64,000 nucleotides of DNA from Eledone cirrhosa (lineage: Eukaryota): positions 155,682,001 to 155,746,000 of the forward strand of contig OZ024741.1 in NCBI GenBank assembly GCA_964016885.1, read 5' to 3'. Every line of letters starts with the position of its first letter. Positions within the stretch are counted from its first letter, which is position 1. The translations under genes and the position numbers were made by a program. This document shows, one piece after another, positions 5,356 to 60,782 of this stretch. The notes under the pieces are model-generated. The model did no database searches. It saw only the letters and a program-made list of their open reading frames with translations, and was not told the origin of the DNA.

Positions 5356-5669
5356 CATTTACGAAAACAGAATTACGAAAACAGAAACAAATTCAAGGTA
5401 CGTCCAATATTCTATCATATATCTCAACACATATCCCAAGAAATGCGGAAGCATGCAACTTTATTCACAAGAGCATCCCACCATTGAAACAAGACCCAAG
5501 AATGAAAAAAGCACTTGAAACACACAAAATAATCGAAAGCAAAAGACAACCGAAATCACTAAAAACATTACTCACCCATGCCAAATTACCTACTACAAAC
5601 CCACAACCAAGTGTCAAAAAATGTGGTCGCTCTAATTGTGGAACTTGCACTCACCTCATTTAAGGCACC

Positions 5670-6011
5670 ATGTATACATTTCAATCAGGACACAATTTTG
5701 TTGTAAAAAATCACTTCACTTGCTCATCAAAAAATTTAATTTATGCCATTAAATGTAAAGGATGCAATGAAGATTATATAGGGCAAACTAAACTCAGAGT
5801 AAGAAATAGAATTCATCGCCAACAATTACGAGACCCCACCACAAGACAGATACCACTCAGTGCACATCTAGACATATGCGCAAGCGATAAGACACCCAAA
5901 TTCCAAGTCCTCCCACTTCATCTTTGTGCTGACAATACAACAGACCAAATACGAATAAATAAGGAAAATATGTTTATTCAAAAATATAGACTAGCATTAA
6001 ATATAGTTTAA
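5670..6011 (+). pseudogene. GIY-YIG endonuclease domain of PLE P1
   Basis: LIYAIKC..C..YIGQT motif, conserved R, E and C-terminal LN. Confidence 0.85.
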
Positions 6012-7064
6012 TAAACGTCACTATGATGTTAACACCATAACATGCTAACCATTCAAACACACATAACACCCTCTTCTATATTCGAAAATAAAAACCAGAG
6101 CTAAATACACCTTAACATACGTTAATACTCTAACACCTTAACATGCTAACCATACCCCCTACACCCATACACACACAAATAACTCCCTCCCCCATTTTAC
6201 TAATGGAATCTTTTTCCTACACACACATACACACACGCACACACACAAATATATATTCTCTCCATCTTAACATGCTAACCATACTCCCAAACACACATAG
6301 ACATAACACCCACACACACATAACTCCCTCCCACATTTCTACTAATGGAATCATTTTCCTACACACACACATCAGCACACAAATAAAAATACATATCTCT
6401 ATTTTCTTTATTTCAATAGAAAGTCTGAATTTTGACACCTCAGCACATCAGCCAAACTCACTGAATCAGGACAATTCTCCCCATCCCCCTTTTCTTGACC
6501 ATTATCTTTTGTTTGGAACAAAACTCTCTAAACGGCTAGAAATAACCCCCAAATACGAACTGGCTCGAAATTTAATGTACTTATTCACGTGACAGTCATA
6601 ACCAATCAAATTACATTTATAAAAAAGCAACTTTTTTTAGCAACATTTTAAAGTGAAAAGAACACCCAAACACGAACTGGGGCGAAAAGTTGATGTGCTT
6701 ATTCACGTGACTGCATCAACCAACCAAATTTCACTCAAATACAATACAATATGAACTCAATAACGCGAACTGGCGCGAAATGTATTATACTTATTCACGT
6801 GACAGTCATCACCCAACCGAATTACTTTTCCAAAAATCCTAGCATTTTCTTTTTTATTTGAATTTTGCAAAGCCGGCCATTTATCGCTCGTATACAGGAA
6901 ACTGAGTGGTCAGTCTGCTGATATGCAAATCTGGCTGATCAGTAGATCTGCTAATATACAGATCTGACTGATCGGCCAGTCTGCTAATATGCAAATCAGG
7001 CCGATCATACACTGTGTATTTTTGAAAATAGCATATATTTTCACTAGCTCTGACAGTTTGGAAG

Positions 7065-7130
7065 GTGAACAGTGAGCTGTACTGATGAAGGGTGATGCCC
7101 AGAAATATTAGTGACTGCAGTTCTGTTCAC
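7065..7130 (+). ncRNA. Minimal type-I hammerhead ribozyme motif in PLE P1
   Basis: CTGATGA-aGGGtgatgCCCa-GAAA-tatTA, enclosed by an imperfect stem GTGAACAG...CTGTTCAC. Confidence 0.6.
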
Positions 7131-7331
7131 ATGCCAACACAAGAGCAAGAATGAAGTATTCATTCTACTGACAATAAAATTGAGGCTTGTTTGCATAATT
7201 GCAAACGAATCGAATGTTATTAATATTCGAAAAACTCAGATTACATTTATATATATATATATATATAATCTGAGTTTTTCGAATATTAATAATAATAATA
7301 TTCGATTCGTTTGCAATTACGCAAACAGCCT

Positions 7332-9950: not shown

Positions 9951-10225
9951 TTTGAGTATATGTTGGTTGTATACCAACACCTACTATGCAGATTGAAGCA
10001 CTCGACGAAGTGCGCAGGTTGGTGAAATAACAACCCAACCAGGAACTGGGCATATCAGAGTATTGACAAGGTTATACAACTCAACAACATATGTACTTGT
10101 CTATACCACACTAATTCGGACTGCCTGAAGAGGTCACAGTCAAAGATGGCTGTCACCGAAATATATATAGCAGTAATAAACGAAGCTAAATTTTAAACAT
10201 TTGACTTATTTATTTTATTTTATTT
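9950..10225 (+). mobile_element. Non-coding HHR element, family H1: inverted 3' piece (9950-10025) joined to sense piece
   Basis: Homologous to 56075-56400 (+) and 60783-61113 (-). Bounded by (AT)n. Confidence 0.75.
10120..10174 (+). ncRNA. Minimal type-I hammerhead ribozyme
   Basis: ACTGC-CTGAAGA-GGTcACAGTCAaagaTGGCTGTcACC-GAAA-TATATA-TA-GCAGT: 5-bp stem I, long stem II, palindromic stem III. Confidence 0.8.
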
Positions 10226-21864: not shown

Positions 21865-21920
<56 letters not shown>

Positions 21921-22134
21921 AGTATGTATACATACATACATATATGTATACAGACGTACAGTAGTATGTATATATATATATATACATACATGCACACATA
22001 TGTATATATATGTACGTATGGATTCACCGAACATTTATTATAATGCTCGGCGTGTTTGTAAACAAACATCCCGAATTAGGCCGTACAGTGTCTAGCAACC
22101 ATCGTTGCTCATTTGTTCAACACTGACAAAGGAA

Positions 22135-22176
22135 CGCTGTACTAGTTTCAAGCTTATTAGCTATCGTCAGCAACGT
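22135..22176 (-). ncRNA. Minimal type-I hammerhead ribozyme
   Basis: ACGTTG-CTGACGA-tAGCtaataaGCTt-GAAA-CTAG-TA-CAGCGT on the minus strand. Confidence 0.82.
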
Positions 22177-22521
22177 ATACCTTCCTGCCAGATCGTTGAA
22201 CATCTGAAAGTATATACTTTCCTTATGCATATTAACGGCTGAGCAGCCTAATTTGCATACATATATATATATGTGTGCATGTATGTATATATACATACTA
22301 CAGTACGTCTGTATACCTATATGTATGTACGTATACATACTTATATTTAAGTAACAGCCGTACTAAGAGTGAGAAATGAAATTTCGTTTCATTTTTTCAG
22401 TTTATCGTTTTCGGTACCCGGCCGATTAACTCACTCAATATGCAAATTAGGCTGCTCAGCCGTTAATATGCATAAGGAAAGTATATACGTTCAGACGTTC
22501 AACCATCTGGCAGGAAGGTAT

Positions 22522-22564
22522 ATGTTGCTGACGATAGCTAATAAGCTGGAAACTAGTACAGCAT
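22522..22564 (+). ncRNA. Minimal type-I hammerhead ribozyme
   Basis: ATGTTG-CTGACGA-TAGCtaataaGCTG-GAAA-CTAG-TA-CAGCAT; intact core, palindromic CTAG stem III. Confidence 0.85.
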
Positions 22565-22830
22565 TCTTTTGACAGTGTTGAACAAATGAGCAACGATGGT
22601 TGCTAGACACTGTACGGCTTAATTCGGGATGTTTGTTTACAAACACACCGAGCATTATAATAAATGTTCGGTGAATCCATACGTACATATATATATATGT
22701 CTGCATGTATGTATATATACATACTACTGTACGTCTGTATACATATATGTATGTACGTATACATACTTATATTTAAGTAACAGCCGTACTAAGAGTGAGA
22801 AATGAAATTTCGTTTCATTTTTTCCGTTAT

Positions 22831-22861
<31 letters not shown>

Positions 22862-40860: not shown

Positions 40861-41090
<230 letters not shown>

Positions 41091-44000
41091 GTGCGCGTGG
41101 CCTGGGCTCAACTTGGAAGCAAGCAATGCTTCTAAATGACCTCAGGTCACAACGTATAGATGTGATGGTTATTTGCGAGGCCCGGATCAGCAACGTGCGA
41201 CAGCTGGCCCCCACCTTTGATGACTTTGAGATGCACGCATCTCTCTGTCAGCCCGGAGGCGGGGGTGGAGTTGTCGTTCTGCTGCAAAAACATCTGGGTC
41301 TCACAACACAGACGGTACATTTGGACCCGGAGGGTCGACTAGTGGTTCTGGACCTTGGCAGTGGTAAAGGCGGAGCGTTTAGGTTGGTAGCCGCCTACGG
41401 CCCTTTCGGGTCAATGCGGCCGGACTTCTTCCATCGTCTGGAGACTTTTCTAGGGACGTCCCGCTCCTTGCTATTAGTGGGGGACTGGAATGGTATCCTA
41501 GATGCACGCTGGGACTACGTAGGGGCCTGCCCCGATAGAGAGGGGTGTAATAGCCTCAAAGGGTTAATCGGTCGATTTGACCTGGCCGATAGATATCGAC
41601 TAGATTTTCCGACTGCGCCAACCTGGACTTGGGCAAATCGTAGCGGATCATCTAGGTCGTACCTAGATAGGTTCTTAGTTAGAATTAAGGATAAGGACTT
41701 TTTAAGTTGTCCAAAAATGCGCATGGTTGGCTATTCAGACCACAAATTAGTGACCTGCATGGTCAACCTTGACAGAACTCATAGACAGGGCCCCGGTTAC
41801 TGGAAGCTCAACTTGTCCTTGCCGGCAAGTAGAGCCTACAGGAATCGGATTAGTACGTTAGTTAAGGAACGGTTGACTGGAGCGATCGTCAACAGCAGGT
41901 GGTGGGTATCTCTAAAGAGAGAGATTAGAGTAGTCTCGATAGAATTTAGTAAGGTTCTAGCTGCGGATAGGAATAGGAAGGAAAGGGAGTTAATAGATAG
42001 AGTAGAAGAGGCAATTAGAAGCGGCGACGTGGCCAGAGTGCTAGCGTCGACAACGGCTTTGAGCCAGTTTTTCGACGCGAAGCACGAAGGCTGCGTTGTC
42101 CGAAGTAAAATACGTGCTCTAGGGAACGAGGGGACCAAAGCTGTTAGCTGGGCCCGCGTGACAGAGGCCAACAGTGGAACTAAATCAACCATCCGGTCTT
42201 TGCGAGACCTGGATGGACGAGCGATTCTTGAGCCTAAGCAGATGTGTGAGGCCTTTCAAAGGCACTTTGCCCGACTGTTCGGGAGGGGCGGGGAGCCGGT
42301 TGGGAACGTGGACTTCGGTCCATACCTCGACGGCCTGCCGCGCCTCTCGGACAGGGAGGCGAAGTCCTGCGAGGAGCCGATTTCGGCCGCTGAGATAGAG
42401 GACGTGCTGAGCCAATGCGGCAAACGCAAATCCCCGGGTCTCGATGGTCTTCCTTACGAATTATATCTAGCTATGCCGGACTTGTTCCCCGATCTCCTCG
42501 AGGCGGTCTACTGCAACTGGCAACAGAACGGGAGAATTCCCTGTACTGTGACCAAGGGCGTAGTCACGCTAGTGAGGAAGGACGAGAACAAGGGGGACGA
42601 AATAAGTAACTTCAGGCCCATAACACTGCTAAATACAGAGTTACAGATTTTGGCCAAGGTGCTAGCAAAGAGGTTGGCGCTTGTCGTGGGCAACCTGGTG
42701 GGAGATGCGCAGACATGCGCTATCCCGTCCAGGTCCATCCATGACAACCTCCACCTCATGCGATACATCATAGAGAGGGTTGGGAACGAACCCGGCTTTG
42801 GTGGGGCTCTGATCAACTTGGATCAATCTAAGGCGTTCGATAGGGTCGACCATGGTTACCTGGATGCGGTGCTAGCGGCGGCAGGCTTCGGACCCGTTTT
42901 CAGGGGCTGGATCACTGCTATGCACAGCAGCCGCATCTGCTCTAGGGTCAAGGTGAACGGCTACCTCTCGGAGCCGTTCAAAATCGCGCGGTCCATCCGA
43001 CAAGGGTGCCCTCTCTCCTCCCTTCTGTATGTGTTGACTCTAGAGCCACTACTGCGGAAGTTGGAGTTGTTGCAGGGCATCCCTTTGGAACCGGGATTGC
43101 GGAAAGCGGTGTCGGCCTACGCCGATGACGTGACAGTAATGGTGTCGACGGCCTCCGAAATCGAGGCGGTCGGCACCTTACTGGAGGAGTACGAAAAGTT
43201 CACAGGGGCTAAGCTGAACCGGGACAAGTCGATCGGTTTGCAACTCGGCACGTGGAGGGGCAGACCGATGCCCTCCGATGGCGTCGTCGGACGCTGGACA
43301 GAGGGCCCGGTGAAGTTGCTCGGGGTCTGGTTCGGACCGGACCTCCAGGTGGAGAAAAACTGGGCGGAGGTTACGAACAGGGTGTTTGCACTGACCCAGA
43401 AGTGGGCCAGTTGCAAACTATCCCTGAAAGGTCGGGCGGAGGTGGCGAACACCTACATAGCGTCCGTCATCTACTACCGCCTGACCGTAGTGCCCTGCCC
43501 AAGGGAAACCCTCACCAAGATGGAGCGCGCGCTCTTCCAATTCCTTTGGAAGAGGCGGGCTCCTATGGTGAGGAGATCCATCTGCTGTCAACACCCTTCG
43601 AAAGGAGGGCTGGGGATGCCGTGGCTAATGATGCGTAAACACGCATTAAGGCTACGGCACCTCTACGTATTCCTCACCGGACAACCGGTGTGGGCCTCGT
43701 TTGTGAGACGAACCTTTCCCAGACTCGTCTCACTCACCGAGCTGCAATCCTGGGTCAAGCAAAGACCGAGAAAACTGGGCGCCTGGCACACTGAGTGTGC
43801 CCAGGCGCTCACCGCCCTCTGGCAGGCGGATCCGGTTATCAGTGGAGACTCCACCGCAACATTCTATAGAGGGCTGGTACGCAGCAGGTGCGACGACGCC
43901 CTCGGAGAAGCCCTAGACATGGAGGAGGACGAACTGGCCAGCCTGTTCGGTAGGACATTCAGCCCGGGACCTATGGACAACTTCCAGAAGTCCCTGGCCT

Positions 44001-44764
44001 GGCAGTGCTACCGAGGGGCTTTACCCGTTCGAGAAAGGCTCTACAGACACGGGCGCCCGGGTAGGGACCCCGCCAAAAAGATCTGTCCCAGATGCGTGTG
44101 CGACGAGGAAACCGTTGCACACGCATTGGTACACTGCTCGGGCGTAGCCGATCTGTGGGGCTATGTCGAACAACTGCTGTCAAGGGTGGGACCGATCCGG
44201 TTGACCACCGAGTCTATTGTAATGATCAAGCCGCCTCCCCCCTTCAAAGATGATGCAGAGGCGGTGTTTCTGTGCGTAATAGCCATGGCGAAAGAGGTTG
44301 TATGGTGGACGCGTCTGAAAGGACTGAGGTCAGGCACCTTTCTCTCTGGCCAACAACTGGTCCGTTTCTTCCGATATCATTTCGGAAGAAGGATCAGGAT
44401 GGAGAGAGAGGTGCTGCACCCCAGCCGTTTCTATGAAAGATGGGTGAAAGTGGCGAGAATGGCCCGTGTGAATGGGCCTTCACTCTACATCAGACTATAG
44501 GTGAGGAAGATGAAAGACCAAGGGAGCACCCCTTCTCTGTGCTCCTGAGGAGAAGGGTTGCACACTTTTTTCGGGGGTGTGTGCGACCCCCCAAGGCGCC
44601 TCCTCTCTATTGAGGATTTTGTTAAAAATTTTATTTTTTGTTATATCTTATTTTATTTTTATATTTTGTTATTGCCTCCTCCTTATTGAGGACGCCTTTT
44701 TGTGTAAACTCCCCCCTTTGTACTTGTCCCACTTTTGATGCCCTAGTGGCAAATAAAAGAAACA

Positions 44765-56400: not shown

Positions 56401-58717
56401 AAATATATATATATATATATTAAAATACAAATATTAATAATATAGATGTTCTTTTGATCAATTAAATTTTATTATACATATTTCAGAGGTACAACAGTAC
56501 GTTCTCATCAGAGAAAATATAATGATGCATGACATACTCTGAGATGTTAAATGGTTAAGATTTAATCAAGGTAGTGATTAACCTAAGAGAAAGCTCAACA
56601 TTTATACCCTAATAATGAGAAAATGCGAAAATGTAACAAATTCATAACAAGCTACTATTCTTCCATAACACCTAACCTTCTAAATAAGGCTCTTTCATAT
56701 GCTTATAAGCATAATGATCTAACCACGGATGAAATTGATATCATACTAACATCCAGAATAACTCTTATTAACTTCAACAATAAATATTGGACCCGCTCAG
56801 ATAGAGATAGAAACTTTGGTATCACTATGGGGGCATCCAATTCTGCGCAAATCACAGATCTTCTGGGAATTCTCATATTAAATATGATAAATAGAAAACT
56901 GCCGGAGATTACCGGTGGTTTATATAGGGACGACATTTTATTTACGGTGGTCAAACACAACAATATAGAACTAAATAGAGTAAAGAAAAGTATAATAGAA
57001 TTCTTTAAAATGTATGACGTTAAGTTAGAAGTAGAAAATGGTACCAAAATAGTTAATTTCCTAGACGTTACGTTTAACTTAAACACTGGCTTTTATTACC
57101 CTTTTCATAAGCCCAATAAAAACTTAAACTATGTTAGTAACCATTCCAATCACCCTAAATCTGTAAAAAAAGCTATAGTAAATAGTGTACAAAAACGCAT
57201 TAATAAAACATCAGCCAATAAAGCTATATTTGACGAAAATGCTGAATACTACAACAACGCGTGAGAATAATATAGAATATGTAGATAATAATAATCCAAG
57301 TCTTAATCCTGATGAAAATAATAACATATATAAACGAAACTCTAATAATTATAATTCAAACACCCATACGCCAAACAAATTGAGGAAAAGAACTAGAACT
57401 AAATCAGTCATATGGTTCGCCCCCCCCCCCCCCTGCTTCGGTTGCTGTTAGAACACCAATTGCAAAATTATTCTTTAATGTTTTTGACACCTCTTTCCTT
57501 ACTCAACATAAATACCATTCCATTTTTAATAGACACAGCATTAAATTGTCGTATTCTACATCTATGAATATGGCTCAAAACATTGCTAAATTAAACACTA
57601 AAATTCTAAAACAGAATCAGCATAATGATCTTAATAATAGCGTTAACATAAATGATACTAAACCAAAATGTAATTGTAGAAATAAAACTGATTGCCCTCT
57701 GCAAAATAATTGTCTAGATAGTAATTTGGTTTATAAATGCACCGTAAAAACTGATCACAACACATACAACTACATAGGATCAACTTCTTCTACATTTAAA
57801 GCCAGATTTGCGAACCATAAATGCTCATTTTCGAACTCCAAGAGGAAATCATCCACCTCTTTATCACATCTCATATGGTCATTAAAAGAGAGGAATTTAA
57901 AATACTCCATTCTTTGGACTAAACTTCGGAATTGTGGAGTTTACCGCAACTCAAGTATATCAAGTAACTGCGCCCTGGAGACCCTGTGATTATTAATAAC
58001 TATGAGACCCTAATTAACAAAAAAGTGAATTATTCTCTAATTGCCTTCATAAAGCTACGTCTACATTCCAAGCCTCCCATAAGACCAGAAAAAACCCCAC
58101 TAAATCACTAAACTTGGTTTTAAGACGTAAATAATCAACAGTTGAAAACCTTAATGTCCTTTAATATTGCTTTATCTTATAACTATCTATAGAAGAAATA
58201 ACGCTCGAATGAATGACACTTGTTCAATAACACGCTGACACGTTGATATACATAACATAATATTATTTATTTTGAACTATGAATAATTCATGCCTTTACA
58301 CTCTTTTATATATATGTATGTATTTAACTTTAGCATGTTTGAATCTATTATTTTATTTTCGTTATCATTTACCAAAAGTATACTGGCTCATTAATACTTA
58401 GTATATCTCTCTATACCTAATTTTCACTCTTGCAAATATGTGTATCTGTATAATAACATAATCATATTATTAGTTACATATATTTTAGCTTTTGTTTTCT
58501 TTGCATATATATCTATAGTGTTTAATAACATAATTACCGTTTTGGTTTAACGCTATATATAGTTTGTGCAAATATAGATATATTGTACAATAGCATATTT
58601 ATTATTTAGAGTTTATTCCTCTCATGAAGGTAGAACTTATATAGAGATTTAATATAATATAACAAATATTAATTTATTACCATAATTCCACATACACATG
58701 CACACACACACAAACAA

Positions 58718-59784: not shown

Positions 59785-60472
59785 TGGCTGAAAACTCTGC
59801 GTTAATCATTACACTAACTACTTAACAATACATGTTTAGATATTTCTAACAATAATTACTTCATAAGCTTTACATACCGAAAATGTTGACAATCTTATAG
59901 GCAATTTTCGTTAAAGATTACATTTAAGTAAATATTCAACAGTGTACATTTTCCTTTCGCTGGCCAAATAAATCCTTTAAATTTTGTCTTCATAAAATTC
60001 AGAATTTTAGAAATGTTAACACATTTATAGAATTTATAAAATTAATAAATATAAATAACCATCAACTTTAAAAAAACTTAAAATTTTGATTCTTCACCCT
60101 TAAAATAACATAAATTAAATATTTTGAAACTTAACCGTTTAGCCTTTAAGCGACAAAAAAAATGTTTCTGCATATATTTATCCCCTTTATCTCCCCCTCT
60201 CTTTAAATCTCCTATCAGTTGCCTTCATAAACTGTTATAGTTCAAGAGACGTTTTCCTAGATAATCCCAATTTGTAGTATCCCACATTTTAAAATCTCTA
60301 TAGCTGCTACATTAAGAAACGTTTTTGTTACTCATACATCCTCTATTGAATTTATTACGTTTTCGCATTTTCTCATTATTAGGGTATAAATGTTGAGCTT
60401 TCTCTTAGGTTAATCACTACCTTGATTAAATCTTAACCATTTAACATCTCAGAGTATGTCATGTATCATTAT

Positions 60473-60525
60473 ATTTTGTCTGATGAGGACGTACTGTTGT
60501 ACCTCTGAAATATGTATAATAAAAT
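60473..60525 (+). ncRNA. Minimal type-I hammerhead ribozyme in PLE pLTR; inverted copy at 56466-56518
   Basis: ATTTTGT-CTGATGA-ggacGTACtgttGTACctct-GAAA-TATGTA-TA-ATAAAAT; 7-bp stem I. Confidence 0.75.
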
Positions 60526-60782
60526 TTAATTGATCAAAAGAACATCTATTTTATTAATATTTGTATTTTAATATTAATAACTCTTGAAAATTATTTTTAA
60601 CTGTAGAGTGCTTCCAATCTACAGTAAAACTCATTCTTTGATGTACGCATTGAATCTTGTTTAACTCTTTAATATATATATATATATAAGATGTGTGCTA
60701 GCAGCAGTAGTGTATGGCACTATTTCAGCCATGTAGAGCGATAACTATTTGTTAGTTATTATATATATATATATATATATAT

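Follow-up and report, generated by a model that had tools for sequence, protein, structure and literature searches.

The hammerhead-bearing locus at 21915-22828 of the 64-kb window, by which we mean the whole stretch of DNA analysed, is very probably an insertion of a high-copy, ORF-free hammerhead ribozyme (HHR) repeat, most likely a non-LTR retrozyme that was copied in trans by a PLE RT/GIY-YIG protein. The locus is an ordinary copy of an abundant, protein-free 426-nt hammerhead repeat family, and the evidence that carries this reading comes from the ends, tandem units and inverted arms of a sample of such copies from the genome.

Architecture of the window locus

Positions 22258-22402 repeat at 22684-22828 (145 nt, 97%, spacing 426), giving a unit of 426 nt and a forward arm of 1.34 units that runs from m282 to m426 and then from m1 to m426 (unit numbering: m1 = 22403, m426 = 22828, predicted ribozyme cut after m156). 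The initial annotation had described this direct repeat as about 1.3 tandem monomers of 425 nt, which holds apart from the one nucleotide in unit length. Preceding the forward arm, 345 nt at 21915-22259 match 22439-22773 in reverse complement (93.6%); this inverted arm spans m37-371 and is without the last 53-55 nt of the unit. Both outer ends of the locus abut (TA)n. As had also been annotated, an intact HHR at 22522-22564 is preceded by the inverted arm with a second HHR (22176-22134), and the cores of both are intact; the + strand HHR departs from the family majority at 22523, 22548 and 22563. The features of the locus are:

21865-21914, no strand: left flank, (TA)n target microsatellite
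21915-22259, minus strand: inverted 5'-truncated arm, m37 to m371, ending at the 'short' 3' end without tail
22134-22176, minus strand: type I hammerhead motif with family-majority letters and U.U at the stem II base; predicted cut between 22140 and 22139
22258-22259, no strand: inversion junction, at which the arms overlap by 2 nt
22258-22402, plus strand: partial unit m282-m426, 5'-truncated, a pseudo-LTR-like direct repeat
22403-22828, plus strand: full 426-nt unit m1-m426, GC 36%, predicted to be highly self-paired
22522-22564, plus strand: type I hammerhead motif with intact core and minimal palindromic stem III; predicted cut between 22558 and 22559
22679-22775, plus strand: palindrome within the unit, TA-rich, that stops at the 'short' 3' end (m373)
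22776-22828, plus strand: 53-nt 'tail' separating the two fixed 3' ends and confined to the forward arm
22829-22860, no strand: right flank, TA-rich target microsatellite, in which a target-site duplication is indistinguishable

The unit has no protein-coding capacity: the longest stop-free stretch circling it is 73 aa on the + strand and 91 aa on the - strand, in agreement with the earlier statement that it lacks an ORF, and no copy joined to an ORF was present in the sample. Two consecutive HHR-bearing units have been used as the working criterion for an active retrozyme locus (Li et al., bioRxiv 10.64898/2026.07.22.740005). Such pairs occur at other loci of the family and are absent from the window locus, which has one HHR per strand; this bears on the activity of the copy and not on its family membership. 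With a single ribozyme on each strand the locus cannot release a monomer, and if transcribed whole it would form a 345-bp hairpin, so that the window copy, with its HHRs lying within an inverted repeat, is likely inactive and a dead end.

An abundant family with sister families

Across the genome (3.0 Gb, 1796 contigs), an exact 30-mer from the HHR had 6385 matches and an exact 23-mer from just behind the cut had 13,094, with 0 for the reversed-pattern control of each, while an exact 26-mer from farther down the unit had 10,889 (control 0). These counts are far above what chance would give, and the family comprises at least 13,000 units in this 3.0-Gb genome. The gap between the 30-mer and 23-mer counts is mostly due to mismatches, the HHR stretch being exact in 26 of 64 HHR-holding copies. 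The smallest copies are partial units, and the largest are arrays that exceed 40 units. Two subfamilies can be told apart within the 426-nt family, and there are sister families with unit lengths of 442, 469 and 310 nt.

Among three loci with long unit arrays (L136-L138), one shows a dimer higher-order pattern (L136) and one, of more than 40 units, is built from a recombinant of the two subfamilies. The 310-nt family, which is retrozyme-like, was seen at L101 and L115, at the former as an inverted insertion that is symmetric and carries three HHR units per side. A group of 2.2-kb arrays (L018-L024) proved to consist of duplications of a nested insertion, and the opposite strand there carries a decayed GIY-YIG.

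The window itself holds further hammerhead sequences. At 6850-7230, behind a Neptune-type PLE fragment that is broken (5370-6002), lies a diverged cousin of the unit, whose type I HHR has decayed (alignment score 116.5, with shuffles reaching at most 89), and another hammerhead family, with a long stem II, has three copies, at 10119 (+), 56195 (+) and 60990 (-). Near the start of the unit, an 8-nt motif at 22440-22447 recurs in the sister families of 442 and 469 nt and in the window cousin; it may correspond to the octamer element of snRNA-type promoters and is a possible internal promoter.

The ribozyme and its fold

HHRs were located by sequence pattern and not by Rfam; an Rfam scan of the window gave no hammerhead among the 150 of 182 matches listed, all of them spurious microRNA matches lying on microsatellites. 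The HHR of the unit is a canonical type I motif with core, stems I-III and loop-1 bulge all present. The stem I letters quoted in the initial annotation do occur in the sequence, whereas the covariation between window copies that they might suggest does not hold up and is accounted for by independent CpG transitions, CpG decay being an alternative that the annotation itself had named. Joint counts at m121/m161 in 131 arms were C/G 99, C/A 16, T/G 9, T/A 2 and other 5, and the two T/A arms compare with ~1.7 double changes expected by chance; the contigs of run X2 have the same majority letters as the family at these positions. Between the four sister families, by comparison, covariation of the HHR structure is real: both partners are altered in 11 of the 16 pairs, pairing is kept in 95.5% of cells, and core and loop positions are fixed. 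The alignment has 7 rows from four related families, so that its significance is overstated by the shuffle control.

The U.U mismatch at the stem II base is found in three of the four families. It is shared with axolotl HHR_Amex2, for which cleavage is described as poor in the monomer but good in the dimer (PMC7229834). For the isolated HHR, the minimum-energy fold is not the active form (z -0.5 and -0.9), which fits weak activity as a monomer. Predicted self-pairing of the whole 426-nt unit is strong (z -7.5 linear, -8.0 circular, and -4.1 without the TA-rich palindrome). In a recent study of Xenopus, 8 of 9 retrozyme candidates are reported not to have cleaved (Li, Clavereau and Pollet 2026, bioRxiv 10.64898/2026.07.22.740005).

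Copies end at two fixed sites

Ends were compared over 78 loci. Similarity to the window had brought in 23 of them, while the other 55 came from the list of HHR pattern matches and were chosen by their place on contig C1. Once segmental duplicates and arms interrupted by the edge of a locus had been removed, 77 loci with 126 arms could be counted. Of these arms, 49 had a 'short' 3' end (m368-378), 59 a 'long' 3' end (m420-m8) and 18 ended elsewhere, so that 108 of 126 end at two fixed sites, which lie 53 nt apart. The 5' ends, by contrast, were scattered across the whole unit. The copies are thus not freely permuted but have fixed 3' ends and truncated 5' ends; the free circular permutation suggested by the initial annotation is not supported, as scatter is confined to the 5' ends and the 3' ends lie at two sites.

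A second regularity was seen where two arms meet head to head. The 43 inverted pairs comprised 31 short+long, 2 long+long, 1 short+short and 9 with an unclassed end, that is, 31 of 34 classed pairs combined one end of each kind (29 of 32 without two segmental duplicates, p ~1e-6 versus a coin toss). In addition, 86 of 131 arms terminate directly in TA repeats. PLE insertions have been described as comprising partial tandems together with a copy that is inverted and 5'-truncated and a tail at one of the ends (PMC8557442, PMC3846280). In vitro, the PLE tail has been reported to be the stretch between two internal RT start sites, and both strands of AT-rich DNA to be cut and extended with HHR cleavage not needed (PMC11167929). 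Copies of the unit carry this known PLE insertion footprint. The ORF-bearing PLEs of the same genome leave it too: in the first of two intact families, taken up below, 20 ends were short and 18 long, and 6 of 6 inverted insertions were short+long. For this reason the inverted arm and the absent 53-nt tail at the window locus are no specific pointer to a circle. The initial annotation had read the locus as the footprint of reverse transcription round a small circular or multimeric RNA, of which copying through the ribozyme site and over more than one unit stands, while the inverted arm and tail are not circle-specific and are common to ORF-bearing PLEs.

These end statistics also bear on whether the unit spread at the DNA level, as a satellite moved by unequal crossover or segmental duplication with its ribozyme a relic. 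Local DNA amplification is evident in the long arrays and the dimer higher-order pattern of L136, and some loci are segmental duplicates; yet crossover does not produce copies dispersed in their thousands whose 3' ends are fixed, whose 5' ends are random and whose arms follow a short+long rule, and the HHR pairing covaries across families. We regard spread by DNA amplification as extremely improbable, and insertion by reverse transcription as the process behind the dispersed copies.

Copying runs through the ribozyme cut site

Among the 108 arms with a classed end, 91 cross at least one cut site and 21 cross two or more, while 64 exceed one unit in length. Because the first sample had been picked through the HHR, copies were resampled via the motif behind the cut. 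In 85 distinct matches, none broke at m155-159 and two broke at m160-161, within 4 nt of the cut; about 14 of the 85 were real truncations in m119-161 (judged by eye), so that breaks are not enriched at the cut. The main template is therefore not a linear monomer released by cleavage, and since copying runs through the cut site, the template is a circle or an uncut multimer.

Subfamily markers were used to compare units within single insertions. At position-picked loci, the block B marker was shared by inverted arms in 15 of 17 cases and by tandem units in 19 of 21 (chance 0.50). The block A marker was shared in 10 of 13 and 13 of 13 cases, respectively, and the m396 marker in 10 of 12 and 16 of 18. 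Mixed-subfamily insertions, scored at block B in both samples, accounted for 4 of 27 loci with inverted arms and 5 of 32 with tandem units, the mixed tandems being L011, L012, L017, L079 and L097, and rare variants were common to the tandem units in 36 of 416 cases. The mixed insertions and the low sharing of rare variants argue that a single-molecule template is not universal. Most insertions derive from one kind of RNA, with a minority mixed.

A strict rolling-circle account, in which every insertion is copied from a single HHR-made circular monomer RNA, can draw on several of these results: arms pass the cut site without a pile-up, 21 of 108 cross it at least twice, units within an insertion mostly share subfamily alleles and the unit is predicted to be highly self-paired. 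Circles have, moreover, been demonstrated for retrozymes of mussel, coral and axolotl (PMC7229834). The same data are, however, accounted for by uncut multimeric transcripts, the five mixed-subfamily tandems do not fit a single monomer, and the inverted, tailed footprint is identical in autonomous PLEs. Weighing these points, we lean somewhat against the strict account, while holding it a serious candidate. For the family at large, these sequence comparisons make a circular RNA stage plausible and leave a ligated circle and an uncut multimeric transcript about equally probable as templates.

The unit and the PLE families of the genome

The first intact PLE family is young and 4.7 kb long, with a 784-aa RT + GIY-YIG ORF whose CxxxxCxxC linker fits the description of Neptune/Nematis in PMC8557442, a likeness judged by the linker. 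A protein search with this ORF found relatives at up to 59% identity. The second family has 775-aa frames and, likewise, two ends. The tails of the two families measure 43 and ~62 nt, against 53 nt in the unit. Both carry an HHR of the U3-A8-type minimal variant described in PMC4209133, unlike that of the unit, and neither has clear DNA homology to the unit.

L061-L068, L140-L169 and L235-L254 include at least two PLE families that are young, have intact ORFs and carry U3-A8-type minimal HHRs near the 3' end. One of them has an additional upstream 455-aa ORF without a Pfam match, and in one the minimal HHR has GCAA instead of GAAA. In the window, a PLE-like fragment with RT-like and GIY-YIG-like frames, partly duplicated in inverted orientation, lies at 56420-57989 and 60290-60580, with HHRs at 56517 (-) and 60474 (+). 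An open 1143-aa LINE-type frame at 41069-44500, with endonuclease, RT and zf-RVT matches, is apparently a young insertion.

Two candidates for a coding partner were rejected. The GIY-YIG ORF next to a copy of the unit in L006 belongs to an intact PLE family without homology to the unit, which sits in the (TA)n end of that element. The second intact PLE family, reached via L107 and window 5370-6002, likewise has no homology to the unit.

The search for a PLE ORF next to the unit used one query PLE protein on the sampled loci. Among 35 arms with a free 5' flank, none had a PLE protein match within 400 nt or a flank shared at a common breakpoint. In the other direction, PLE loci were checked for the unit: 30 + 8 of the first family (four overlapping), 30 of the second and 50 from the GIY-YIG profile. 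No sampled PLE locus bears the unit or a sister as its own end, and only separate insertions were found; the unit was present at 3 of the 50 GIY-YIG loci, on the opposite strand, far off, or behind ~90 nt of (TA)n past the end of the PLE. The initial annotation had raised the attachment of the unit to a PLE ORF, and there is none in these flanks and PLE loci.

These searches weigh on the possibility that the unit is the pLTR of an autonomous PLE yet to be found, its copies being truncated ends of that element. The matching footprints of unit and autonomous PLEs would fit such an origin, part of the Xenopus retrozyme families is reported to show pLTR homology (Li et al., bioRxiv 10.64898/2026.07.22.740005), and the PLE sample covers part of the candidates (30 loci from a set of 18,190 first-look candidates, 30 from another of 16,028, and 50 of 150 GIY-YIG matches). 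Against such an origin, units adjoin one another head to tail without an intervening ORF, in places more than 40 times; free 5' flanks of the unit match PLE protein in 0 of 35 cases, its presence at the sampled GIY-YIG loci always takes the form of a separate insertion, and the two intact families bear a different HHR. From the loci sampled, we consider a pLTR origin highly unlikely and prefer mobilisation of a protein-free unit in trans. One weak hint at a partner comes from sequence: the end of the 442-nt sister unit resembles the end, or priming site, of the first PLE family over 14 nt with one mismatch, a T-rich likeness found post hoc and the sole such match between that unit and the 4.7-kb element.

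A proposed route of insertion

From the end geometry, the (TA)n target, the read-through and the absence of an ORF, all legible in the DNA, we infer a route that takes in transcription, cleavage, circles and the identity of the enzyme. A tandem locus would be transcribed, and its RNA would either be cleaved and closed into circles or persist as multimers; efficient cleavage by the ribozyme would be confined to dimers, in tandem loci. A PLE protein would then nick both strands of a (TA)n tract and prime one cDNA at each of the unit RNA's two internal start sites. Both cDNAs would pass the unit junction and the ribozyme site before halting at random points, and short microhomology would join them head to head.

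A more specific version is tentative and, on balance, doubtful. Here a circular ribozyme-made RNA would be the direct template of a Neptune-type PLE enzyme acting in trans, a protein dimer would prime both nicked (TA)n strands on one RNA with a different start site for each, and the recognition signal would be reduced to a short structured end. If true, this arrangement would explain the short+long rule, the copies longer than a unit and the inversion in one step.

Comparison with known systems

Retrozymes and the PLE footprint are both already known. Non-LTR retrozymes have been described in molluscs and other animals (Cervera and de la Peña 2020, PMC7229834) and proposed to be non-autonomous PLE derivatives (bioRxiv 10.64898/2026.07.22.740005). 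As presented in these two sources, the metazoan elements share with the unit a 150-450-bp, low-GC tandem unit, a canonical type I HHR and the lack of an ORF, together with copy forms from monomers to long arrays, a self-paired fold and co-occurrence with PLEs; at 426 nt, a GC of 0.36 and dimers to multimers, the unit fits their size and composition. It differs in that no parent pLTR was found for it among the loci sampled, and its cleavage and circles are predictions.

EN+ PLEs (Craig et al. 2021, PMC8557442; Arkhipova et al. 2013, PMC3846280; Frangieh et al. 2024, PMC11167929) resemble the unit in their partial tandem, inverted 5'-truncated arm, one-arm tail, microsatellite target and two RT starts. 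The unit is unlike them, as far as those accounts describe, in having no ORF, a tail of 53 nt rather than 30-40 nt, and a canonical HHR with a small stem III rather than the minimal variant. MRC1 of Chlamydomonas, a non-autonomous PLE derivative (PMC8557442), is like the unit non-coding, pLTR-forming and multicopy in head-to-tail order. According to the description there, derivatives of its type generally resemble their autonomous family at the 3' end, where the unit's likeness is at most 14 nt, and their clade is mostly without canonical HHRs, whereas that of the unit is canonical.

In the literature, supplements aside, we found no paper on the 426-nt family or on tail and inversion statistics of retrozymes. 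What this family adds is a tie between retrozymes and the PLE footprint at the level of insertion mechanics, a modest gain. The questions of circle versus multimer and of the origin of the inverted arm could also be approached through it, since its RNA is small and defined, its two start sites are mapped and intact candidate enzymes exist. The retrozyme papers, in the parts drawn on here, argue from co-occurrence, tandem form and pLTR homology; here the two-start tail and the inverted arm are followed copy by copy, and a protein-free unit with the signature of intact PLEs, two starts and one tail per insertion, supports mobilisation in trans more directly than co-occurrence does.
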